A DNA stretch of 64,000 bases from Promethearchaeota archaeon (GCA_030599585.1 JAUVNS010000005.1:224001-288000); one strand, 5' to 3'; shown: positions 45,070-64,000, numbered from the stretch's first letter. Notes: generated from the sequence alone by a model not told the origin. A program made the numbers and translations.

Positions 45070-48000
45070 TCAAATCTTTTCGTCTTTCTTTTTTTTAAAT
45101 AAGAGATACCCTAATACCACTAAAGTTAGAATAAGTGGGATCATTATCGTAATCGGGTTTCCTCCGCTAATTTGAAATATATAATACGAGATAGCCGTGA
45201 GCGAAGCAAAGAAAGCGATAACAGAACCATACTGATTTGTGAAATTCTTTAACCTTCGCATCATTATATATACTCTAAAATTCATTTTCTTTATTACCTC
45301 TAACTCTTTGTCATCAAGCATACTCAGAACATCCGGATTCTCGTAATATAAACCGATCAGAGGATCGTATTTCCCTTTCAATTTTCCAGAACTAATTAGA
45401 GAAATTAGGTGTTTCTGAATAAGAGGTTTCTTTATCTTCAATTCGTGCTGTAAAAAACTTAATGTAAGGAATTCATTTGCTACGGCCTTTATTGCCATTT
45501 CCACGTAAGATTTCACAATTAATTCTTCTAAAGTTTTAACCTTCTCTCTTAATGTCTCGTTAAATTCTTTAATGAAACGATCAAAATCGTTTATTATATG
45601 CCTATTTTTGGTTTCAAAATCATTAGAATTTCTCTTAAATATTCTAATTAAATCAGCTATTTCTCGACTGGTTTTTTTAATCTCCTGTTCGATATAAATC
45701 TTTTTTTTATCAACTTTTAAGTATGCTCTCTTATACTGTTCCGTTTCAATATATTCTTCAACCCTGGTTTGTAACGTTCCTAATAATTGACTTAAATGGA
45801 TATTGTTGTTGGAAATCGTTGATATTAACTTACCTCGATTCGTCTCAAACCTCAGAGAATTTATTTTATCATTTATTGCTTGAATTCTATCTTCAATCAT
45901 TGTTTTGATTTTGTTTTTGAGCAAAACTGAGAATTCTCTCAATTCTGTTTCAAATTTCCTCGTTTCATAAGATATGTTTATAATTGATTTCAATTTATTT
46001 TCGATTTTTTCGTCGACTTCCTTTAATCTAATCCTAACATTCTCTTTTCTACTTTCAAGAATAACCTTCATCTCTGTATGAGACCCAGCTCCCTCAACAT
46101 CAGCAGATGTTTTTGTTAATTGATTTTCAATTTCGATTTTTAGCGTATCTAACAAATCGATGATGAATGTTTGTATGTCTTTAAACAAAACCAAGTTTTC
46201 TTTAATATTCAAAATCGCTTTTTCATTATTACTTATAATAGCTTTTAGATTATTAATCAGTTCCATATTTTCTAATCTATTCTCGTCAATATTTAGCTCT
46301 TTTATCTTAGTGTTGTATTGATTGGTAATAGAATCCTTCAAATCAATTAAATCATTAATTCTATTTTGAATTTCTAACAAGTTTACTCCAAGAGTTTTGT
46401 TTTTAATACACGAGTCGTAAAGGGCTAATAATTTTCCTACCGCCTCCTGGGTTTGCTTAATAATTCTATTTTCTGTGAAATTTGTCAATTTTCTATTCTT
46501 ATGATAAGCTTCAGTGTGAACTGTTAGTTCTTTTTTATCTTCAAGTAAATCACCTTGCAATTTAGACACCTCTATCATGTCTCTAATTCTTGGAATTATC
46601 ACTTTACATTTGAGTTTAAGCTTATCTGCAAGTTTTTTTATACTAATTGTATCTGTGTGTTCCTCCTCGCTCATTAATACAATTTCTTGAGAAATTATGT
46701 CATTTACATATTCTTCCTTAAGTTTATCAATTTCTTCAGTAAAGAAAATGTTAAATTTCTCCCATTGAATAATTTTTATCGAACTTTCATCAATGCTTGG
46801 GATAATAGCTTTAAGATTTGATAATTTTTTAGAAAATTTCTTGCTATTTTCGTTTAAATCAATTAGAATTGTATCAAAACCTCTAATAACAATTGGGATT
46901 TTATTTGTTTTGCTTTGATCAATGTTGTTCCTGTAATTTTCTAACTTAATCTTAAAATTTTGGATAGTATCAGAAACAAAATTATCAAAATCTTCAACAC
47001 CTGCTCTATTTCTTTCTTCTATAACTTTTTCTTTTAATAATTGCTCTTGTCCCGCTATAAACTCAATAATATTTTCTTCCAGGCTGTCGAGCTTTTCATT
47101 TATATATTTATAAAGTGGAAATAGTTTCTGTTTAAAAGAAATATTCTTTTTAACCATTGATTTTAAACTTTGAATTTTCTTAGTTTTATCTTTTAGTAGT
47201 ACATCCGCTTCCATCTTAATAATCTTAAAAGCGTCTTGATATTGATTTTGAGAAGTTATATTTTTAACATTCTCTTTTATTTGTAGAATTCCTTCTTGTA
47301 TATTATCCCTAACATTTCCAATCTCTCTATTCAATTCGTGGAAAAACTGGAAACCATTCGTATAATCAGCAAAAATCAAATCAAAGTTTTCTTTAAAATT
47401 AACCCATTTATTTATTATTTTCTTATGGTTCTTCGCGATCTTCTTCTCCTTGGTTGTTATCTGATGCGACACTTTGTAAATAACTGAATCGTATTTGCTT
47501 ACAACCTGAGCTATTTTATTAAACGCATTTATGATAAGTGATAATTTTTCTTCATCGTAACCCTTTTCAAGAACCTCCATAATGTAATTCTTAAAAGAAT
47601 CTATCTCACGATTTACCTGATCTTGAATATCGTATATTTTATTATCTAACTCGCCTAAAATATCGCTAAATTTTTTTAAACTTTCCATCTCTTGAATCTT
47701 TTCAAGGAGGTAATTATTTGCTTCGCCTAAACGCTTTTGCAGTAAAGAATAAGATTTATTCCATTGAGATATTTCAGAACCTAAAGCAGCTTGTAGGTTA
47801 ATGTATATAAGCTCTTGATTAAACGATGTTTCAATGTTTTTATTAAGAAAATCTGCTTCCATTAATGAATCTCGCAATACAAACTTCAACCTTTCTTTAG
47901 CGAAATCAACTTCGTCAATCATAAGATAAGATTCTATTTCTTCCTTTATTTGTGGAATTGTGTTCTTGAGCTTCAAGGTCATATTGTAAATATCATTTTT

Positions 48001-49482
48001 AATTTCCTTCAGTTTAGCTTTTTCTTCGAAAAGTCTTTCACTATTAATTTCTTTATCAGAAATGATTATGTTTTTGTACAAAACATCTAAACAAAAGTAA
48101 AATTTTGTTTTAAATAAATAAGCCTTTTTTGATCTAATCTCTCCTTCAAAAAAATGGTTGCTTATTAAGTCATAGATGATCGGAAAGATTTCTTCTTTTA
48201 ATTTCACGGGTTCCTGTTGGTAGGAACTTTTATATTTTTTGTGTATATCCGAAAGTGAAATGACGCTACTATTACTTAGTTGGCTATAGACTTCTTCGAT
48301 AATTTGCTTTTTACCTTGACTTAAATTTTGTAAATAATCATTAAATTCAGATGAAATATCGATATTCTTTAAAGAAAACATGTAATTGAGGTTAATATAC
48401 AGTACAATCTCTTCTACTCCATGGCTTAACCCAAAAGTAGTCTTTATCTGGTTTAAGTCTATAAAATTGTATGTTTCTAATCGCTTAAATACAACTCTCT
48501 CGATTTCTTCGATAAAACGATTCCAGATAATAGATAGCAAAATTACGAGTTTAGTAACGTTTTTTAACGCGATTAAGTTCCAACTTTCTTTATCTTTCAA
48601 TAATAAGTCTAATTTTTCGGCGATAAAAGAATAGATTCTTGCTGGATTGTAATCTATAAGCCATGAGTATATGTCAAGAAGATTTACGCACCAAAATGTA
48701 GATTCAATATCCCCTCCAATTGAATCTATGACAAAACCTCCATTTGGCTGTTGAAATTGATAGAAATACTGAATTTCCTTATCTTTTACATCTACATCTA
48801 AATCAAAGAATTTCAGACTAAGGAGTTTAAAAATAAAAGATACATCCTTCTTTCTTTCTCTAAGATATTGACGAAATTGCTCTTTGAAAACTCTTACATC
48901 AACACCGATAAGCATAAGACTTTCGACTACATAGTAAAAAGTCTCCCCCAAAGGTCCTTGATTACCAAATTCGCATTGTTTGTCAAGGCAATGTAAGAAT
49001 CCGTTATTTCTTTTATGATCATAAATAAAGTTTTTAACTTTTTCTATAACTATATCTTGGCCTTTAGACGCTAGGTATTGTTGGAGCACACCCAATAACT
49101 CTAAACTTGCTAATGCATAGTATGTAGACCATATATCAGGTGTTTTTAATGAATAAGGCGATGCTTTAAATCCCAATTGATCTTTTTCAATTATCTCAAC
49201 TTCACAATTTTTTACAAATTCTAAGAAAACTTCGGTATTATCGTCCACTTTTTGTTTGATATACTTCCTCAGGAGGAGAAACCAAAAAAGATCCTCTAAA
49301 TTTAAAGACGATTCATTATTTAAGTGTATATTATAATATTGATATAAATCTAAAACTTTATTGTAATTACTTAAGTAGAAATTGCCGATATCCTTTCTAT
49401 TTGCTAAAACAAAAGATTTAAAAGGCTCTTTTTTGAATTCCGTAATGTACGGATATGCTGTCTTGTTCTCTACATTTGTCAA
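45070..49482 (-). CDS. large multidomain protein: prenyltransferase-like repeats, PCI/winged-helix domains, long coiled coil, C-terminal 2 TM
   Basis: STYYALASL, NNGF, QQPNGGF, STFWCV; ISIKKLADKL...SKLQG and LQHELKI...SGKLKGKYD; K/E/I/L heptads; TTG start with GGAG. Confidence 0.7.
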   Translation of the reverse strand: MTNVENKTAYPYITEFKKEPFKSFVLANRKDIGNFYLSNYNKVLDLYQYYNIHLNNESSLNLEDLFWFLLLRKYIKQKVDDNTEVFLEFVKNCEVEIIEKDQLGFKASPYSLKTPDIWSTYYALASLELLGVLQQYLASKGQDIVIEKVKNFIYDHKRNNGFLHCLDKQCEFGNQGPLGETFYYVVESLMLIGVDVRVFKEQFRQYLRERKKDVSFIFKLLSLKFFDLDVDVKDKEIQYFYQFQQPNGGFVIDSIGGDIESTFWCVNLLDIYSWLIDYNPARIYSFIAEKLDLLLKDKESWNLIALKNVTKLVILLSIIWNRFIEEIERVVFKRLETYNFIDLNQIKTTFGLSHGVEEIVLYINLNYMFSLKNIDISSEFNDYLQNLSQGKKQIIEEVYSQLSNSSVISLSDIHKKYKSSYQQEPVKLKEEIFPIIYDLISNHFFEGEIRSKKAYLFKTKFYFCLDVLYKNIIISDKEINSERLFEEKAKLKEIKNDIYNMTLKLKNTIPQIKEEIESYLMIDEVDFAKERLKFVLRDSLMEADFLNKNIETSFNQELIYINLQAALGSEISQWNKSYSLLQKRLGEANNYLLEKIQEMESLKKFSDILGELDNKIYDIQDQVNREIDSFKNYIMEVLEKGYDEEKLSLIINAFNKIAQVVSKYDSVIYKVSHQITTKEKKIAKNHKKIINKWVNFKENFDLIFADYTNGFQFFHELNREIGNVRDNIQEGILQIKENVKNITSQNQYQDAFKIIKMEADVLLKDKTKKIQSLKSMVKKNISFKQKLFPLYKYINEKLDSLEENIIEFIAGQEQLLKEKVIEERNRAGVEDFDNFVSDTIQNFKIKLENYRNNIDQSKTNKIPIVIRGFDTILIDLNENSKKFSKKLSNLKAIIPSIDESSIKIIQWEKFNIFFTEEIDKLKEEYVNDIISQEIVLMSEEEHTDTISIKKLADKLKLKCKVIIPRIRDMIEVSKLQGDLLEDKKELTVHTEAYHKNRKLTNFTENRIIKQTQEAVGKLLALYDSCIKNKTLGVNLLEIQNRINDLIDLKDSITNQYNTKIKELNIDENRLENMELINNLKAIISNNEKAILNIKENLVLFKDIQTFIIDLLDTLKIEIENQLTKTSADVEGAGSHTEMKVILESRKENVRIRLKEVDEKIENKLKSIINISYETRKFETELREFSVLLKNKIKTMIEDRIQAINDKINSLRFETNRGKLISTISNNNIHLSQLLGTLQTRVEEYIETEQYKRAYLKVDKKKIYIEQEIKKTSREIADLIRIFKRNSNDFETKNRHIINDFDRFIKEFNETLREKVKTLEELIVKSYVEMAIKAVANEFLTLSFLQHELKIKKPLIQKHLISLISSGKLKGKYDPLIGLYYENPDVLSMLDDKELEVIKKMNFRVYIMMRRLKNFTNQYGSVIAFFASLTAISYYIFQISGGNPITIMIPLILTLVVLGYLLFKKKKDEKI

Positions 49483-55186: not shown

Positions 55187-55993
55187 TTATTTCTTTAACA
55201 ATCTCTTTGACGACGATCTCATTCCGATGACTAGGAAAAACAATGAGAAAATCAATGTTAAAGGCAAATGGCCTAAGATAATATAACCAAAAGCAGGTTC
55301 AGATGAGTAAGCAAATAATATAATTGTAACAACTAAGTGAACAATAGAATTCACTATAGCAACATTTCTACTAGGAGATAAAAAACCGAATACTAAATTT
55401 GGAATCAGAAATAGTAATATAATGTTCCCAGTAGATAATAGAATTAACGCTGGGAAAAACTTCGAAAACAGTTCTTCGGTTGTAATATATTGGGTGAGAT
55501 CGAAAGCCATATAGATAAAAAGTGTTAAATTAATGCTAGCAAAAACTAAAAGAATCGTAAAGGGAGTGTTGATTAGCCAAGAGATCATTATTCTTATTAT
55601 AGGTGAATGAATCGTTTTAGTTCTTAAAACATCTTGAACAACTTTCTCCATCTCTTCAATGATGATTTTTTCTTGATCATAATCTGGTGAATAAGCGTCA
55701 ATAAATTCTTGCATGATGTTTCTAATTATTTTTGTTACTAACTCGTTATTATCATTTGAACTGACAATTGCAGCTCCAAGTAGACCTTCATCCTCGATTG
55801 GAGCGAGAATTAGTTTATTATTTTCTCCGAGGTCAACATTTTTTACAGCAGTTCCTAAAGCTTCCCGGCTAAAGTTAGTAATTGAAGTGAAAAACCCTAT
55901 TAAAATATTGTCGTCGTATTGCTGTTCCTTAATGAACTCTTTGGAATATAATAAAATTCCGTTTTCATCCAAGATATATAAACTTTTTAACAT
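55187..55993 (-). CDS. longin-domain membrane protein (~4 C-terminal TM)
   Basis: MLKSLYILDENGILLYSKEF...LIGFFTSITNFSREAL longin pattern, followed by TM helices. Confidence 0.7.
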   Translation of the reverse strand: MLKSLYILDENGILLYSKEFIKEQQYDDNILIGFFTSITNFSREALGTAVKNVDLGENNKLILAPIEDEGLLGAAIVSSNDNNELVTKIIRNIMQEFIDAYSPDYDQEKIIIEEMEKVVQDVLRTKTIHSPIIRIMISWLINTPFTILLVFASINLTLFIYMAFDLTQYITTEELFSKFFPALILLSTGNIILLFLIPNLVFGFLSPSRNVAIVNSIVHLVVTIILFAYSSEPAFGYIILGHLPLTLIFSLFFLVIGMRSSSKRLLKK

Positions 55994-56029
55994 CTTCTTA
56001 TATCCTCTTTTATAATCTAATTAATAACT

Positions 56030-57736
56030 TCATCTATTTTCAACAAATTCCATATAATCACCGATGGAGGCGGTAGACCTTTTAAAGCTAAAAAGGCTTG
56101 AACCCAATAGTTCTGTGATTTGGATTATTACATCACTAATACTATTTTTTATGAAGATTTTAAATTTCTCGTTCTTTCTTTCTTCAATTATTACCTCTAT
56201 TTCCTTCATTTCTTTAAGTTTTTGAATTGAGGAATCGTCTGGATTGTTCAATTCTATGCTCAAAATTTCACCAAATTGAGGTAATTCTTCAATGTAGTCT
56301 TTAATAGAGCCTATTTTTGATGTATTTTTTGTAATCGTTAGAATTCGGTCACAATTTGATATAATATCTTCCGGACCATGAAAAATTAGGATGACATGAA
56401 AATTTTCTTTGATTTTATCCATGTATGAATTAAACTTTTCATACTCGAGCTTGCCTAAAATCCCAAATGGTATAGAAAACATTATAATTGTTGGTGATTG
56501 GATTAATGCCCTTGTAATAGAAAAAAGAAGAAATTCCAAAGGAGTCAACTTTGAGAATCTCTTATTTTTCTTATTCAGTAGTCCAGTTGATTCTAAAACT
56601 TTTTTTAGATACGCCTTCTTGCGATTGATTCTATATGACCTGGTTTTTAAGAAATCTTCCATTATTTCATCTAAACTTTGAGCCAAACCAGCTTTCTTTA
56701 GCATTAATTTAAATATTTCCTTCTTTTTCTTATAAATTGCATGTAGATTAATTTGATATTGAATAGCTTTCTTGATCTTCATACTTGTGATTGTTGAATC
56801 GTATGCTTGAGGTAGAATGAAAATTCTTTCTTTCTCAGATGGACTTAATAATATAGTAGGTTTTCCAAAAATTTCGATTGAACCAGAATAGTCATGTTGT
56901 GAACCTGCCATGGCGTCAAATAAAATCATCAAATCCCGCCTGAGATCAATTTTGGCTAAACTTTTTTCATCAAATATTATTCCTATCGATTTTCCTCGGT
57001 GAATTTTGAATGATAATTTATCAATCATATCACCTAATGTAACACGATTTACAACCAAATATTGAGAATTTTCTTTTAACACTTTTATTTTTACTCGTGC
57101 GGAGACAATACCACATATTCTATCTACAAGTTCATAAATGTGAGGGGGGTTTTCTGTGTTCCAATTTTTAATCATCTCGTCCTCTATAAATTCTCTCTCA
57201 GTGATAATTTTAGATAAAGATCTTGAAAAAGAAAAGGTTGGTAAAAACGGATATTTTTCTAAATTAATTTTGAGATTTAAAGTAAAATCAGGATAAGAGA
57301 TTCTTATCTCTCGGTCGTATGGGTTAGTTTTAATTTGATAATTCTCAAATTTTTCGTCAAGTAGTATAATTTCAGTATTTAAAATTCTTAGATGACTTTG
57401 GAATTCCGAACTGATAAGCCTTCTCATGTGGTGGATAATTTTTATGGGATTTATCAATCCGTCTTCATCAAAATCTGGTTCAAATAAAATCTCATTAAAA
57501 TCAATTTCATTTTCAAGAGGGGTGTATATCTTCAATAACGGAACTCCTTTTTCAATAACATCACTATTAGGAAAGAATAAAACTTCGATAAACGATTTTT
57601 TATAGATTAAATTAATAATAGAAGCAATCCCAAACGTATTTTCTCTGTAAGTCATCCAAAAACGCTTAGAGAAACGAACAGCATCTAAAATTTTTAATCT
57701 TATTCGTTCCAATTCTATATCTCTAGAGCTCTTCAA
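56030..57736 (-). CDS. UBC/RWD-like domain fused to a degenerate ABC ATPase
   Basis: INLEKYPFLP...IKNWNTENPPHIYELV; Walker A lost (GIIFDEKS), signature LTPLE, Walker B lacks DE; TTG 57736 with GAGGT SD. Confidence 0.65.
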   Translation of the reverse strand: MKSSRDIELERIRLKILDAVRFSKRFWMTYRENTFGIASIINLIYKKSFIEVLFFPNSDVIEKGVPLLKIYTPLENEIDFNEILFEPDFDEDGLINPIKIIHHMRRLISSEFQSHLRILNTEIILLDEKFENYQIKTNPYDREIRISYPDFTLNLKINLEKYPFLPTFSFSRSLSKIITEREFIEDEMIKNWNTENPPHIYELVDRICGIVSARVKIKVLKENSQYLVVNRVTLGDMIDKLSFKIHRGKSIGIIFDEKSLAKIDLRRDLMILFDAMAGSQHDYSGSIEIFGKPTILLSPSEKERIFILPQAYDSTITSMKIKKAIQYQINLHAIYKKKKEIFKLMLKKAGLAQSLDEIMEDFLKTRSYRINRKKAYLKKVLESTGLLNKKNKRFSKLTPLEFLLFSITRALIQSPTIIMFSIPFGILGKLEYEKFNSYMDKIKENFHVILIFHGPEDIISNCDRILTITKNTSKIGSIKDYIEELPQFGEILSIELNNPDDSSIQKLKEMKEIEVIIEERKNEKFKIFIKNSISDVIIQITELLGSSLFSFKRSTASIGDYMEFVENR

Positions 57737-60700
57737 TTTCGGGTACCTCAATTAATTTATATCTAAAAAATTGCTCCATTTTTGAATCAATTTGTTTTAA
57801 ATCTTGGATTGTATCCTTTCCTACTTCGTTTTCAATTTTAATAACAAGAGACTCGACATCAAGATTAGTGAATATTGAATAATCCGTCCCTGCCTTATTT
57901 TCTAAGACATTCTCTATCCCATCTATAGATTCTAACCTTTGGACCATATTTTTTTGAATGGTGTTAAAAGATAATTCAATTGAGCGCCCTTTACCTGGTA
58001 ACTGAGCAAGTAATTCTTTAGGCTTCCCGAAATCTATAATCCCTCTATTCCTACCAAAAATTGCAACCCTATTACAAAATCGAGATTCTTCTGGATAATG
58101 AGTTATTACAATTAATGTTGTGCCAAATTGTTCATTAATTTTAGTTAAGGCTAACCATAAATTTTCACGAATAATCGGATCTAATCCCGAAGTAGGCTCG
58201 TCTAAAATAAGAAAGATAGGTGAATGGATTAAACCGATTGCGATACTAACTCTACGTTTTTGGCCTCCTGAAAGATTTTTAACTAATTCATTCATCTTAT
58301 CTTCAATCTCTAAGCTTCGTAAGAGTCTTTTAGATCTGCTTATTATTTCTTGCTCAGTTAGACCGTACTGGCTCCCAAATGAGAGTAAATTGTCAATAAC
58401 AGTGAAATCGTGGTAAATTTTGCTTAGATCTTGAGGAACATACCCATACATCGGCCGTATCTTTTTAGAAGTTCTTTTATTTATATTTAACCCAAAAATT
58501 TGGCAGAAACCGGTTATTTTCCTCATCCCTAATAAACCCTTAATATATGTGGATTTACCTGCTCCACTTTCGCCTAAAATCCCTAGAATTTGACCGTGTT
58601 CTACCTTCATTGTAACAGAATCAACAATTAACTTACCACCCGCGTATACGCTGAAATTTTCACAATGAATTGCTGGAAACCTTTGAAGATAGGAGGGTGT
58701 GATTTTCCCTCCCAGACCTACTTTTTCCTTAATACGCTTTATTAAAGAAATTTTTTTGCGAATTATAAGAAATACATAAGCGCTTAAAATACCAGCTTCA
58801 GTTAATAAGATATATATTAATAGCACATTCCACGGTTTCGAATCGAAACTTTGATCATATTTTAATTCATCAATTATTATGATTCCATAAGGAGTATTTC
58901 TTAAATCAGCTCCAAAATTTGGATTATCTCCAACCCCTCCCGTACGAACGCTTATACAATCAGAAAACCAGAATAGGGCATCTTTAATGTTTTCTGGCTG
59001 AAAATCATAATCATATAACGATTTGGAAGCCATGTATGTCGTAAGAAACGAGGATGGTAAGTCTAATAAATCACCCATCATGGGTAGCAAAGAGAAACTA
59101 CCATCCGAACTTTGCGAAGTAATCAAGAAATTAATCGCTGACATTTTCGAAATTGGTCCTTGAACGAAACCTTCTTTAAAAATTTGGAGTCCATAATATG
59201 TCGAAATGATATCACTATGAAATCCCATAACAATGGAAAATCCTCCATCTGCATTTTGGCAGGACCTTACCCAATGTGAAAAATTATTGTATTGAATCGT
59301 ATGAAGTCCGTTAATCAATTCTAGAGAAACCAAAGCCCAATATGTACTCTCTACAGTAGATGCATTAACATCTATTAAATCCGTAAAAAGTACGGAATAA
59401 GCTCCAAAAAGAGAAAACAAATAATCAATATCATCACCTACCCTAAATCCACCATCAGGATTTTGCAAACTAGATAGATAATTCTTAGTAGCGTTTAATA
59501 CATTAATAGGAGTTGTTTGAAACCATGGACGATTTCGAGGAATGATCATCTCTAAAAGCTTAATACCGCAATAAGTAGAAAATAATGTAGCATTTTGTCC
59601 TGGTTGAGACCCAAACCCTCCATCATATGAATTATAACATGCTCCCACAAAATTTAATATATAATTTTTTATGGCTTGAAATTGAGATGTTTGTATTGTA
59701 TCTAAATATCCCATTTCATAATAAGTTAATACACCAAAATAGTTAGATTCTATTGTAATTTGCCCGAACAGAGCATTCTTAGCTTGAAAAAAGTGCAGCC
59801 AATTATAATATTTAACAGATACCTGATGAATTACATTAGAAAGCTCAATTGTGAGATTAAGCCTCGGTGTTAATATTCCAATTGATTTCATTGCTGCCCA
59901 CCCAGAGTTAAAATCCGATATGGTAGTGTTAGGGCGAACACCAAATCCACCATTATTATTTGATGAATTTAAAACAAAATTTAATGTTTCATCCTCATTA
60001 TTTAATATATTAAACCCTAACAGATTCTCTACTATCTCTAATGTTGAAATTGAGTAATAAGTTGTTTGGACATCAGACATTCCCGTTTCAGGATTTGTAT
60101 ACCCTCCATCGAATGAGTTATACAATGAACCAAAATACGCCCAAATTGATGTTAAATCAAAAATACTATAGGTCATATTCATCCTTAAATAAGCCCTTAC
60201 ACCGTAGAATGTTGCTTCAGGAGTGCTGATTAACGAGTTGTTAGTTAACCTATAACTACCTCCAAGCCATGTAGAATTTATAAATTCTCCAACTTTTTTG
60301 TTTGTAATACTAGACATTTCAGATATGCTATAAGATAATTTAATCGCGCTAAAAGTAGAAATTATGTCTGAATCGTTTAGAAATTGATTAAATTTAAAAC
60401 CCCATCCGCCCCCATTAAGAGAGCTTAACAGATATTTCGCTATATTATCTGTTTCTCCAAGTTGAACTTTTCTCTCAAGGTATGAAATATTAGCTATTTT
60501 TAATGTTTCGATAGCCATATAAGTAGAGAACAAATTCCCCAGACCTGCGATATCTGAATAAGAACCATCGTAATTTTGTTTTTCAAATATATAATTAAAG
60601 AAGATATCTTTTAGAAAAAATTGTACATTGGTATTATTGTTAGGATCAATTAAATCTGGAGCATATATGTTTGTAAATGTAAAATTTGTGGAATCTATTG

Positions 60701-60926
60701 CTCGATAATTTGAATCGATTTCAGGTTCCACAAACAAGCCTATTTGATTATGATGAGTGGTTGCAAATAATGTTGCAAGGTTTTTAGCTTTGCTTACATC
60801 TGTTTCACTTATAAAATAGGTCCATCTAATATTGATTAAAACCAATGATATTATTGGTGTTCCTGCTAAAATTATGAGTATTATAAGCCTTTTGAGTCTT
60901 TTTTTGTTTTTACGATTAAGATTTAT
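57723..60926 (-). CDS. TM - prenyltransferase/squalene-cyclase-repeat ectodomain - TM - ABC ATPase fusion, ATA start
   Basis: Repeats QNYDGSY, QNPDGGF, QNADGGF, QSSDGSF with STY; GESGAGKST, LSGGQ, LILDEP, ITH; in-frame extension INLNRKNKKRLKRLIILIILAG after GGAGGTGA. Confidence 0.85.
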   Translation of the reverse strand: MNLNRKNKKRLKRLIILIILAGTPIISLVLINIRWTYFISETDVSKAKNLATLFATTHHNQIGLFVEPEIDSNYRAIDSTNFTFTNIYAPDLIDPNNNTNVQFFLKDIFFNYIFEKQNYDGSYSDIAGLGNLFSTYMAIETLKIANISYLERKVQLGETDNIAKYLLSSLNGGGWGFKFNQFLNDSDIISTFSAIKLSYSISEMSSITNKKVGEFINSTWLGGSYRLTNNSLISTPEATFYGVRAYLRMNMTYSIFDLTSIWAYFGSLYNSFDGGYTNPETGMSDVQTTYYSISTLEIVENLLGFNILNNEDETLNFVLNSSNNNGGFGVRPNTTISDFNSGWAAMKSIGILTPRLNLTIELSNVIHQVSVKYYNWLHFFQAKNALFGQITIESNYFGVLTYYEMGYLDTIQTSQFQAIKNYILNFVGACYNSYDGGFGSQPGQNATLFSTYCGIKLLEMIIPRNRPWFQTTPINVLNATKNYLSSLQNPDGGFRVGDDIDYLFSLFGAYSVLFTDLIDVNASTVESTYWALVSLELINGLHTIQYNNFSHWVRSCQNADGGFSIVMGFHSDIISTYYGLQIFKEGFVQGPISKMSAINFLITSQSSDGSFSLLPMMGDLLDLPSSFLTTYMASKSLYDYDFQPENIKDALFWFSDCISVRTGGVGDNPNFGADLRNTPYGIIIIDELKYDQSFDSKPWNVLLIYILLTEAGILSAYVFLIIRKKISLIKRIKEKVGLGGKITPSYLQRFPAIHCENFSVYAGGKLIVDSVTMKVEHGQILGILGESGAGKSTYIKGLLGMRKITGFCQIFGLNINKRTSKKIRPMYGYVPQDLSKIYHDFTVIDNLLSFGSQYGLTEQEIISRSKRLLRSLEIEDKMNELVKNLSGGQKRRVSIAIGLIHSPIFLILDEPTSGLDPIIRENLWLALTKINEQFGTTLIVITHYPEESRFCNRVAIFGRNRGIIDFGKPKELLAQLPGKGRSIELSFNTIQKNMVQRLESIDGIENVLENKAGTDYSIFTNLDVESLVIKIENEVGKDTIQDLKQIDSKMEQFFRYKLIEVPEIEEL

Positions 60927-61960
60927 TATGGATTGTCACCTCCATTCAATATTTCAGAATTATTTAGACGGTTTTCAATTTCTTCCTCTTCTTGAATTCT
61001 GATTTGAAAGTATCTTCTAAAATTAGCGACGTCCCTGCTCATGGAATAAACTTTTAAATTATTTTCAAACAAGAATTTCATCAATTTAGGTAAGCTATCT
61101 TCAAAATCTTCCATTAAAACTTCGATAGTCTCGTTTCCAACCCTTAATACTTTTTCTGTGAATGGATACTTTTGTATGGTATTAATTATCTCTTGGTTTA
61201 AATTTTCAATTGAAATTCTTGCTACCAAACCATTACTAGGTAAAGAGTTTATAAGATTTTGTGGAGAATCGAATTCAAGCAATTTCCCTTCCCTTAAAAT
61301 AGCACATTTATCACATATTAACGCTGCTTCTAAATCGTGAGTAATTATAAACATGGTAGTATTTAGCTGCTGGTTTAACTTCTTAAGATAGCTAAGAATA
61401 TCATAACGCTTAGATGCATCGACTCCAGTAGTAGGTTCGTCAAGAAATAAGACTTTTGGGTTATGAATTAACCCAATAGCCATTGATAAGCGCTTTTTTT
61501 CCCCGCCGCTCATCTTCTTAACTCTTTTTTTCCAGGTGTCTTGGGGGATATCTAATATGTTAAATAATTTTTCAGCAGTTGATTTTGCTTCTTTTTTATC
61601 CATTCCATAAGTAGAGGTAAAAATCTCAACATTAACCATGGGATTTAGTTCAAAATATAGATTTAGCAGTTCTAATTGAGGTACATATCCGATATTGCTT
61701 AAAATTTTTGAGTGATTTCCTTTTTTACTCGGATTTAAACCTGTAACTAATACATTGCCACTCCAGTTTTTTTTATCAATCTGGCATGTTAAAACCCTTA
61801 TTATGGTTGTTTTTCCAGCTCCGGATATTCCGAACATCCCAATAATCTCCCCTTCTTCTACATTAAATGAAACATCTTGAACTATTTGCTTATCTCCGAA
61901 AATGACATTTAAATTTTCAACAAATACCATTGTGTTGTTCGAATTCTCAGTAGTCTCCAT
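60926..61960 (-). CDS. ABC transporter ATP-binding protein (ABC-2/DrrA-like)
   Basis: GISGAGKTT, MSGGE, LFLDEPT, ITHD. Confidence 0.95.
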   Translation of the reverse strand: METTENSNNTMVFVENLNVIFGDKQIVQDVSFNVEEGEIIGMFGISGAGKTTIIRVLTCQIDKKNWSGNVLVTGLNPSKKGNHSKILSNIGYVPQLELLNLYFELNPMVNVEIFTSTYGMDKKEAKSTAEKLFNILDIPQDTWKKRVKKMSGGEKKRLSMAIGLIHNPKVLFLDEPTTGVDASKRYDILSYLKKLNQQLNTTMFIITHDLEAALICDKCAILREGKLLEFDSPQNLINSLPSNGLVARISIENLNQEIINTIQKYPFTEKVLRVGNETIEVLMEDFEDSLPKLMKFLFENNLKVYSMSRDVANFRRYFQIRIQEEEEIENRLNNSEILNGGDNP

Positions 61961-61961
61961 G

Positions 61962-63173
61962 TCACACCTCGTATTTTCTTCTCTGAAACAAAATAAATGA
62001 CAACACTACGAGAACAAGACTTACTCCTAAAAGAGAAAAGAAATCAAAACCAAATACAGATTTCCCTTTAGTAATTATTCCTGTAATTAAAGGGGATCCA
62101 TGAGATAATGGGAGCACATAGGCTATAGCTTGTAGGTAAATGGGCATAGCTTCAATGGGAATAAAAATTCCGCTTAAAAGAATCAAAACGAGAAAGGTTG
62201 CAAAAAATAATTGATTTGCTTGGGTTTTAGTTTTACTTAAAGTACTAATAAATATACCAATTGTAAGACCGGCAAAACCTAAAATGAATAAAGCTAGAAA
62301 TAAATCAAATACAGTTCCTAGTAAATATAAACCAAAACCTAAAGCGGCCATCACAAGAGAAATATTTTGAACGATTAAAATGCTAAGGTAGGTTACATAT
62401 TTTGCTAATAGTATTTCAATTCTTTTAACCGGTGTGAGTAACAATCTCGCAACGGGCTTTTCTTGAACGATGATTAAGATTGTTGAGACCATACCAACGC
62501 CAATTATCATAAAAGACAACACTAATACCATGGTATTATTATACCCTGAGCTGTAGTTTTCTGGAATTGTAAATTCCTCAAAGCCATTGAGTTCAAATTG
62601 AGGAGTTAAATTATTCTGGGACACAAAAATTTTAATCGAATCGTAAACAGCATTTAAGTTAACCTGAATTTTTTGGATATCTGATGAATCTGTTATACAG
62701 TCGATTAAACCTGGATACCCCCAACTTATTAATTCCGAAAAATCGACAGGAATTGCTATAATAATCTGAATCCTTTTAGAAATCATGTAATTTCTAGCGG
62801 TCTCCATTGCATATATCTCCTCAGTTGCGTTGAAAAATTGGACGAGGTTCAATAAATTTGATGAATTAACAGCCTCGACATATTTAAGATTATAATCATC
62901 CAGTTCTGATTCTGTGAAATTATTTTCTTCAATAAAAGTGTTTGAATCATAGGAAACGACAACGCAATTAATAGGGTCTGCGGGTCCTCCCGAACTACTA
63001 GAGGTTACACCTATTAAAACTACAACGAGAGGAGGTACAATTAACGCTATGAAAATATTAAACTTATCTGTCCATAATAGACGAAATTCTTTTTTAATTT
63101 GGTTAAATAACCTTAGAACACTGTTTTTTTGAAATAATTTCTTACCATTTTTTTTGTTTAAACTTCTAATGAT
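61962..63173 (-). CDS. ABC-2 type permease, start extended upstream
   Basis: In-frame upstream IKKEFRLLWTDKFNIFIALIVPP (TM1); RLLLTPV, LSGIFIP, LPLSH; start at ATA/ATC/ATT 63176-63170 after GGAGGT. Confidence 0.85.
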   Translation of the reverse strand: MIRSLNKKNGKKLFQKNSVLRLFNQIKKEFRLLWTDKFNIFIALIVPPLVVVLIGVTSSSSGGPADPINCVVVSYDSNTFIEENNFTESELDDYNLKYVEAVNSSNLLNLVQFFNATEEIYAMETARNYMISKRIQIIIAIPVDFSELISWGYPGLIDCITDSSDIQKIQVNLNAVYDSIKIFVSQNNLTPQFELNGFEEFTIPENYSSGYNNTMVLVLSFMIIGVGMVSTILIIVQEKPVARLLLTPVKRIEILLAKYVTYLSILIVQNISLVMAALGFGLYLLGTVFDLFLALFILGFAGLTIGIFISTLSKTKTQANQLFFATFLVLILLSGIFIPIEAMPIYLQAIAYVLPLSHGSPLITGIITKGKSVFGFDFFSLLGVSLVLVVLSFILFQRRKYEV

Positions 63174-63176
63174 TAT

Positions 63177-64000
63177 CTATACCTCCAGTTTTTTAAATTT
63201 ATAACCAATGTAGGCAATAGTAAGAAAGACAAAAGAAATCATTAGCATAAAAAACACGTGTTCTAAATTTAATGGTAATCCTCTTAGAGTGATATCAGTA
63301 ATCAATACTGAAGCATGACTTAATGGTAAAACATCAGCTAGGAATTTTGCTCCACCTAAAGACTCTGCGGGTAATAGTGTTCCTGAGAAAATAATAATCA
63401 CGATAAACATCATTAGATACATCTGATTAGCTCCCTGTTCAGTTGGACTAATAGCTGAAATAAATAAACCAATAGCAACTCCACAAAACCCAATCAATAT
63501 TAAAACTAGATAGAAATCAAAGAGTGAGCCTAAACTATACAAACCAAAAAATGATGTAAGGATAAATATTTCTGTGGCCTGCATAATCATTATTACTGTG
63601 TTTGCTATTAGTTTACTCAAAATTATATCTCTCTTTGCTGTTGGAGTTATAAGCATTCTCGGTAGTGGACCCTCTGAAACAATAGATAAAGATGTAAGAT
63701 TCATAGTAGTTCCTACAATAATTATTGGCAAAATTAGAGCTAATGCATAATTTAATAATTGAGATTCCCACGAGGGTACGCCAAATTCCAGATGAGGGAT
63801 CATAATAGTAAAATTTTCTATCATGTTAATTTCCATCCTAAATAAAGCGAGCGGTTCCTGGATTGCAACTTCTATCGCACCAACAGCGCTAGAATCAGAA
63901 CCATCGATGTAATAGATTAACACGGGATTGGAATTATTTGCGATCGACTCTGAAAAATTTTGTGGAAGTATGATGAAAACATCTATGAGCTCATTTTTTA
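63177..64000 (-). CDS. ABC-2 type permease (5' partial)
   Basis: RMLITP, FSGTLLP, LPLSH; frame stays open to the window edge. Confidence 0.88.
   Translation of the reverse strand, partial: KNELIDVFIILPQNFSESIANNSNPVLIYYIDGSDSSAVGAIEVAIQEPLALFRMEINMIENFTIMIPHLEFGVPSWESQLLNYALALILPIIIVGTTMNLTSLSIVSEGPLPRMLITPTAKRDIILSKLIANTVIMIMQATEIFILTSFFGLYSLGSLFDFYLVLILIGFCGVAIGLFISAISPTEQGANQMYLMMFIVIIIFSGTLLPAESLGGAKFLADVLPLSHASVLITDITLRGLPLNLEHVFFMLMISFVFLTIAYIGYKFKKLEV

Follow-up and report, generated by a model that had tools for sequence, protein, structure and literature searches.

A block of six co-oriented genes in a Promethearchaeota archaeon may encode a heteromeric type V (ABC-2) ATP-binding cassette (ABC) exporter of hydrophobic cargo, most likely an isoprenoid lipid or a lipid-linked envelope component; a rough probability of 0.45 is given to this reading, which is drawn from sequence comparison and structure models. 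The block lies in a stretch of 64,000 nucleotides (GCA_030599585.1, JAUVNS010000005.1:224001-288000; here called the window, C9:224001-288000 of a 4.85 Mb genome), and the named relatives of the host are metagenome-assembled genomes (MAGs) of Promethearchaeota (Lokiarchaeia). Read on the minus strand from 64328 to 55187, the genes encode permease A, permease B, ATPase A, a fusion protein that joins a large ectodomain to a second ATPase (type B), a pseudo-ATPase with E2-like domains, and a longin-transmembrane (longin-TM) protein (Table 1). The fused ectodomain, the conserved dead third nucleotide-binding domain (NBD) with its E2-like domains and the longin-TM protein have no described counterpart that could be found. 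A preliminary description of the window had listed the same six co-oriented genes with overlapping or abutting junctions, which gene calls and coordinates bear out.

The exporter core

Both permeases pass the Pfam cut-off for ABC2_membrane_3 (permease A, E 4e-17; permease B, E 8e-25), and the profile of the permease family matches the transmembrane domain (TMD) of insect ABCH over its full length (E 2e-37), the closest solved structure being Tribolium ABCH-9C (PDB 9JU6, 8YZP, 8Z01). The layout, with an N-terminal helix, TM1, an extracytoplasmic loop and five more TM helices, is that of ABC-2/type V. The motifs GISGAGKT, GYVPQ, SGGE, LDEPTTG and THD of ATPase A are kept in all operon homologues and the fused ATPase B also retains all catalytic motifs, in agreement with the preliminary description of two ABC-2 permeases, a canonical ATPase and a fused one with intact motifs. 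Both intact NBDs carry a C-terminal regulatory (R) domain like that of TM_1403, NosF and ABCA. The best NCBIfam matches, drrA and RbbA, stay below the family cut-offs (drrA, 195 and 165 bits against 312, with E 2e-57 for ATPase A and TIGR01188; RbbA, 149 against 1050), and by NCBIfam cut-offs neither ATPase is predicted to be a DrrA, RbbA or NodI orthologue.

In a tree of NBDs, the A-type and B-type sequences formed two clades with largely matching branching, sister Loki systems included. Taken together, the two permeases, ATPase A and the ATPase B domain of the fusion very probably constitute a working pump. Escherichia coli YbhFSR likewise combines two separate permeases with two different NBDs (PMC13739795), so that a core of this kind is not new, and the earlier statement that ABC-2 exporters normally need permeases plus one ATPase type was too strong. 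What sets the operon apart from a YbhFSR-type layout is confined to the dead third NBD and the fused modules.

At least seven related genomes have a frame-breaking insert of 31-34 nt in the ATPase A gene, between the DEPTT and GVD codons (L036:7588-7642, L041:7667-7721, L043:7817-7871, L078:6272-6327, L084:10698-10755 on the minus strand, also L105 and L117). The site corresponds to window position ~61423-61428, where the window copy has no insert. By eye each insert forms a bulge-helix-bulge, one with a mismatch, and its removal restores P-T-T-G, so that they are candidate mRNA introns; minimum-energy folds showed the hairpin and not the exact bulge-helix-bulge motif. One locus (L036:4917-7069) contains a 2.15-kb insertion with a second copy of the 5' portion of the ATPase A gene and two open reading frames (ORFs), one apparently winged-helix; it resembles an integrated element restoring its target.

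The double-barrel ectodomain of the fusion

The fused ATPase had been described as tethered by one TM helix to a prenyltransferase-like ectodomain of ~650 residues; the tether and the ectodomain were confirmed, but the helices are two, one on either side. The position of the domain between two TM segments with basic cytosolic flanks places it outside the cell. Sequons are in modest excess in the fusion (14 against 10.5 expected), but as the excess extends to the cytosolic part it says little about topology.

The 12 prenyltransferase-type repeats show the alpha/alpha barrel fold shared by the beta subunits of RabGGTase, FTase and GGTase-I, as the preliminary description had suggested. One barrel is made of both ends of the ectodomain and the other is inserted (aligned range 40-689 with 285 residues). 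In fold searches with the fusion, the lists of which were full of ABC chains, squalene-hopene cyclase was not among the matches listed. None of the 12 repeats contains the zinc ligands of protein prenyltransferases (D-x-C, His; DVC aligns to TVE and DPFHT to DIIST) or the DxDD of class II terpene cyclases, of which the first Asp only is kept, as D-x-x-S-T, and no prenyltransferase alpha-subunit gene was found in the loci examined. Compared with both enzyme groups, the operon has two barrels that are extracytoplasmic and devoid of zinc ligands, DxDD and alpha subunit. The last repeat carries a near-invariant D-x-P-x-F-G-x-D-L-R-N (58896-58928), in which D665, F669, G670, D672 and N675 (alignment A2 numbering) are invariant and R674 is near-invariant. 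The ectodomain as a whole belongs to the faster-evolving parts (43-56% across the family).

In Thermoleophilia, ECF S-components are fused to related barrels, and genes for DUF4430 and ABC ATPases lie next to them. More distant barrel proteins are encoded beside, or fused to, 7TM and ATP-grasp genes in MAGs of Thermoplasmatota, Woesearchaeota and Heimdallarchaeota (L126, L127, L128), also next to a transglutaminase-like gene.

The pseudo-ATPase and its E2-like domains

The third ATPase, reported earlier as a pseudo-ATPase, is dead: Walker A, the signature and the Walker B acids are lost in 39 of 39 aligned homologues and in all full-length representatives. The ABC fold is kept, the Q-loop PQ and the H-switch His are often retained, and the ratio of nonsynonymous to synonymous substitution (dN/dS) is 0.14-0.27. 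Both its NBD and its R domain score higher against the B-type than the A-type, the R domain being most like that of the fusion, and in the tree the pseudo-NBD groups with the B-type with modest support (83); the dead ATPase is probably a duplicate of the B-type ATPase. The family is narrow, with 61 clusters among 1.84 billion.

In place of the single UBC/RWD-like domain noted before, two stand in tandem, and the fusion of a dead NBD to an E2-like fold is otherwise upheld. The structure model (predicted local distance difference test, pLDDT, 87.9) contains two helix-meander-helix domains, the ABC fold and the R domain; fold searches with the whole protein gave only ABC matches, their lists being full of the ABC domain. 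Domain 2 retains YPxxP and the E2 tryptophan, with no catalytic Cys and no HPN, features that match the definition of the non-catalytic E2 class (PMC6601020); domain 1 lacks a catalytic Cys as well, and these residues speak against a catalytic E2 enzyme. Its profile matched 2q0v, a Plasmodium E2-family chain, with E 0.002 and, weakly, BRCC45 with E 0.04-0.08; the host genome itself encodes a tandem-E2+RING protein and two E2+JAB-type proteins whose domains are clearly homologous to it (HHalign 99%), and these proteins are the closest kin of the E2-like part. One of these RING/JAB paralogues passes Pfam UQ_con, on another of its repeats. Domain 1 matched domains of the paralogues with E 1e-4 and a probability of 58%, and has YPxxP only in distant members. 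A direct comparison of domains 1 and 2 gave no significance, a value of 87% being inflated by shared rows. In sequence type domain 1 has diverged further than domain 2, yet across the family it is as conserved (76-79% identity) as the active NBDs (72-78%), which points to a fixed binding partner.

The tandem-E2+RING protein (C34:329622-331412 of the host genome, L092:6623-8413) combines four E2-like domains with a RING-like Cys cluster at its C-terminus in a FANCL-like layout, and is widespread in the host family. The E2-like + JAB-type proteins are encoded at C26:215171-215881 and C20:28801-29484, with HxH intact in one.

The longin-TM protein

The longin+TM gene was found, as described, 36 nt past the stop of the pseudo-ATPase gene. 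Direct Pfam matches of its product are weak and sub-threshold (Sybindin in 8 of 38 members, Intu_longin in 3), and the family profile retrieves a Fuz_longin_1-positive protein (E 5e-11) and ~20 similar domains in the host genome. An Atlas feature search gave a longin score of 0.81, all Atlas leads being <0.9. The domain is thus probably a longin, the grade at which the earlier claim is kept. The R-SNARE layout of a SNARE coiled coil and a single TM was not found, ~4 TM helices following directly after the longin in the hydropathy profile. Complex prediction for the pseudo-ATPase and longin-TM scored 0.00, which gives no verdict and is not used as evidence either way.

In a Helarchaeales-type genome one longin-TM copy lies two genes away from a Rag-like GTPase gene. 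A row of a Rag-like GTPase, a 403-residue protein of unknown type and an apparently frameshifted longin-TM gene was seen at L180:4810-8039 (genome G057).

Conservation and co-inheritance

The identical six-gene order recurs in 27 other loci of Promethearchaeia, which represent at least seven genera and include one in another order, so that the conservation of gene order in related genomes, on which the preliminary description had staked its proposal, is supported. Some further loci are interrupted by contig ends, and one (L043) is without adjacent permeases. The parts are rearranged, with the pseudo-ATPase gene divergent, in two Helarchaeales-type genomes, one of them Hel_GB_A. Of 68 genomes of the host's family, 34 were found to have the ectodomain, 35 E2-like domain 1 and 37 longin-TM; every genome with the ectodomain also carries the other two, and the three extra genomes are 81-86% complete. 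Since the genomes are kin, this joint presence is a matter of co-inheritance and not a statistical test. Longin-TM is single-copy and operon-bound in the host family. At least 120 full-length homologues of the fusion share the same two Pfam domains; a scan of 301 genomes of the phylum found the fusion outside the class in one only (G121), and it was not found in four single-contig genomes searched. Against the three closest relatives, dN/dS is 0.07-0.33 for every part, indicating purifying selection.

An apparent joining of the fusion protein to the pseudo-ATPase (L111) was an N-gap artefact, and a pseudo-ATPase fragment with a foreign N-terminus (G045, L057), probably a chimeric junction, was excluded from the counts. 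Homing introns were rejected as the nature of the inserts in L036, L041, L079, L080 and L083, which are ordinary gene insertions. The NCBI labels Hodarchaeota and Odinarchaeota on some matches were not trusted, those contigs falling in the GTDB genus of the window.

Sister systems

Sister Loki ABC-2 systems (L059, L061-L065, L067, L068) have the same A/B ATPase pair with one or two permeases. Their B-type ATPase is extended on the cytosolic side by PCI/winged-helix repeats, which in one sister group match UFM1-ligase and DDRGK models, or by a beta-rich domain of unknown type. At seven sister loci (five scanned) the neighbour is a membrane-anchored subtilase-fold + GIFT protein of 1280-1760 residues with a site-1-protease-like layout; canonical triad motifs were found only in some of these proteins. 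The shared clades of the tree and the sister systems indicate an old A/B pair that is repeatedly accompanied by a large protein of the cell surface and by an adaptor in the cytosol. On this comparison the operon is one version of that plan.

Proposed mechanism and alternatives

If the operon is an exporter, permeases A and B would form the channel, and ATPase A and the ATPase B domain of the fusion very probably the working nucleotide-binding pair. The two TM helices of the fusion would hold the non-catalytic double barrel outside, beside the channel exit, where its aromatic cavity might accept or present cargo, by analogy with LptC or MlaD and their pumps. The dead ATPase, without ATP turnover, would be a docking subunit which brings two non-catalytic, protein-binding E2-like domains to the pump, and the longin-4TM protein could act as another adaptor at the membrane, with a small GTPase as its plausible partner. 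The probability given at the outset applies to hydrophobic cargo, barrel as acceptor, dead ATPase as docking regulator and longin as membrane adaptor jointly. A six- or seven-subunit lipid exporter, in which the dead third ATPase recruits ubiquitin-system partners, the longin reads a Rag-type small GTPase and both thereby control where or how actively the pump works, is unlikely.

Several observations weigh against the exporter. Two permeases serve three NBD folds, which leaves the dead NBD without an obvious docking site, and none of the loci examined has a gene for biosynthesis or for cargo linked to the operon. Prenyltransferase-like barrels on prokaryotic surfaces are fused to ECF S-components or stand beside 7TM/ATP-grasp systems; being common in such unrelated surface roles, the fold alone is no pointer to isoprenoids. 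The tree test also tolerates an A-type placement of the pseudo-NBD (p-AU 0.077). Helarchaeales-type genomes, one of them without the fusion, have several copies of longin-TM, none of them linked to the operon. G121 (93% complete) carries the block, but there the dead NBD has no E2-like domains and no longin-TM was found, so that these extras are dispensable there; this genome is the single case in which both are absent.

The lack of linked cargo genes would suit a mechanotransducer that exports nothing, in which ATP turnover, by way of the permeases, moves the outer double barrel, which acts on an extracellular client, and the E2-like and longin parts tie it to cytosolic signals, close to the signalling option of the preliminary description. 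In NosDFY, ATP turnover acts on NosD, and the structures closest to both R-domain-bearing NBDs include NosF; the sister A/B pairs beside subtilase + GIFT proteins also suggest that the pair serves surface proteins. The permeases, however, are complete TMDs of the ABCH/RbbA type, large extracytoplasmic loop included, and those of their relatives that have been characterised are exporters of cargo; this account too is judged unlikely. Somewhat less credit is given to a machine of four genes only, with the pseudo-ATPase and longin-TM as co-regulated neighbours that work elsewhere or transiently. The unlinked longin-TM copies outside the host family would fit it, as would the unrelated genes between fusion and pseudo-ATPase in two genomes and the divergent transcription in the Helarchaeales-type genomes; yet the pseudo-ATPase gene stays adjacent through rearrangement and across orders, its R domain resembles that of the fusion, and it accompanies the ectodomain in 34 of 34 genomes.

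Two further proposals concern the barrel. It might be an active surface enzyme with a new catalytic motif, which would transfer a pump-fed isoprenoid to surface proteins or cyclise it. Class II terpene cyclases also build one barrel from both chain ends and insert the other, the invariant residues of the last repeat could be catalytic, and sister systems have enzyme-like ectoproteins; but the absence of the zinc site (D-x-C/H), of DxDD and of a linked alpha-subunit gene, together with the fast evolution of the domain, makes such an enzyme rather improbable. An importer, with the barrel catching a corrinoid, a quinone or some other ligand in short supply, recalls the Thermoleophilia fusions and is highly improbable, since those are ECF systems whereas here the TMDs are of the ABC-2 exporter type, with no DUF4430 or S-component linked.

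Comparison with known systems

By sequence kinship the operon belongs to ABC-2/type V and would work like a YbhFSR/ABCH-type exporter. YbhFSR, RbbA-YhhJ, DrrAB and TM_1403 (PDB 4yer) have the NBD + R-domain layout in common with it, and the NBD-R units of the ABCA lipid exporters match structurally. In contrast to YbhFSR, RbbA-YhhJ and DrrAB, its second NBD is fused to a TM-ectodomain-TM module of its own, and it has two additions, a longin-TM gene and a dead third NBD that bears E2-like domains. In NosDFY, LptB2FGC and MlaFEDB the extracytoplasmic partner has a TM anchor or docks onto the permeases. These systems resemble the operon in combining a pump core with an outer acceptor or effector, NosF and MlaF being structural neighbours, whereas the outer fold here is unrelated and covalently joined to one NBD. 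ABCH exports ceramide and xenobiotics (PMC12578276) and, unlike the operon, is a fused homodimeric half-transporter without accessory subunits; the likeness implies no tested ancestry. The E2-like part has the helix - beta meander - helix, the YPxxP and the missing Cys of UEV/Mms2, BRCC45/BRE, FANCL and RWD, and falls in the same family as the Loki tandem-E2+RING and E2+JAB proteins. In those systems (UEV, BRCC45, FANCL) it is not fused to a dead ABC NBD as here, and a ubiquitin-receptor role is putative.

In Asgard archaea, eukaryote-signature domains are often fused in ways specific to a lineage and longins are abundant, most eukaryotic-signature genes being without conserved neighbours (Liu et al., 10.1101/2020.10.19.343400). 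The operons described there are those of ESCRT and DENN/GTPase, and its main text never mentions ABC or prenyltransferase. Databases hold names for single domains and not for the whole combination, and in agreement with the preliminary description no account of it was found in the searchable literature, outside which most subscription journals lie.

Because E2-like and longin 'eukaryotic signature' domains are fixed here in an operon with an assayable machine, what they do in Asgard archaea becomes testable. Control of an ABC exporter through a conserved dead third NBD would be new, and an ABCH-like core with an isoprenoid-type barrel is a candidate route for lipid export to the Asgard cell surface. 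Were the unlikely reading with ubiquitin-system and Rag-type partners correct, eukaryote-type trafficking and ubiquitin domains would regulate membrane lipid export in an archaeon, and the operon would belong to a larger group of Loki pumps with A/B pairs, in which surface and cytosolic modules are swapped.

Gene boundaries and neighbouring genes

The coordinates are collected in Table 1. Permease A starts with ATG at 64328, 328 nt past the window edge. ATA-type starts are needed for permease B (63174-63176) and the fusion (60927-60929), where relatives with the same Shine-Dalgarno (SD) motif have ATG, TTG, ATA, ATC or ATT. The four SD-like motifs noted earlier were all found in place; for each, the chance of GAGGT in a random 12-nt window of the host genome is p ~0.007, and they recur at the same junctions in most relatives. 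A sigma-70 promoter scan, a model ill-suited to archaea, gave chance level.

Table 1. Features of the six-gene block (window numbering; all on the minus strand)
Feature	Position	Strand	Basis or remark
Permease A, ABC-2/type V TMD, 6 TM, extracytoplasmic loop; 383 aa	63177-64328	-	in-window part 63177..64000; ORF completed from genome
SD-like GGAGGT, final codons of permease A	63181-63186	-	
Permease B, ~404 aa; probable ATA start directly after permease A stop	61962-63176	-	Pfam
SD-like GAGGTG, final codons of permease B	61965-61970	-	
ATPase type A, 344 aa; DrrA-like NBD + C-terminal R domain	60926-61960	-	motifs, TIGR01188
SD-like GGAGGTGA, 6 nt ahead of fusion ATA start	60936-60943	-	
Fusion, 1068 aa, ATA start; TM1 - double alpha/alpha barrel - TM2 - ATPase type B + R domain	57723-60929	-	
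TM1 of fusion, basic stretch before (N-terminus inside)	60828..60884	-	hydropathy; kept in 39 homologues
Ectodomain, 12 prenyltransferase-type repeats (two six-repeat barrels)	58836..60809	-	
TM2 of fusion, basic stretch after (C-terminus inside)	58761..58817	-	hydropathy; 39 homologues
Fusion ATPase type B + R domain	57750..58682	-	Walker A, Q-loop, signature, Walker B, H-switch invariant
SD-like GAGGT, 8 nt ahead of pseudo-ATPase TTG start	57745-57749	-	
Pseudo-ATPase, 568 aa, TTG start; E2-like 1, E2-like 2, dead NBD, R domain	56030-57736	-	
E2-like domain 1, helix - beta meander - helix	57398..57733	-	model, HHalign
E2-like domain 2 (UEV/RWD/BRE type)	57080..57412	-	motif, HHalign, PDB profile
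Degenerate NBD + R domain	56033..57070	-	
Longin-TM, longin-like domain (~128 aa), then ~4 TM helices	55187-55993	-	profile, hydropathy

Just beyond the window edge lies a Zn-ribbon gene (CPxC...CxHHF; L001:10444-11007, window 64443-~64997), which accompanies the block in many genomes and is a possible seventh member. In two genera it is the next gene upstream of permease A, and in a third the next one downstream of longin-TM; the host genome has one close paralogue of it elsewhere. Outside the operon, at 45070-49482 on the minus strand of the window, a protein of 1470 residues is encoded with a prenyltransferase-like barrel, a long coiled coil, a PCI domain and C-terminal TMs; its gene is close to the operon in some relatives.

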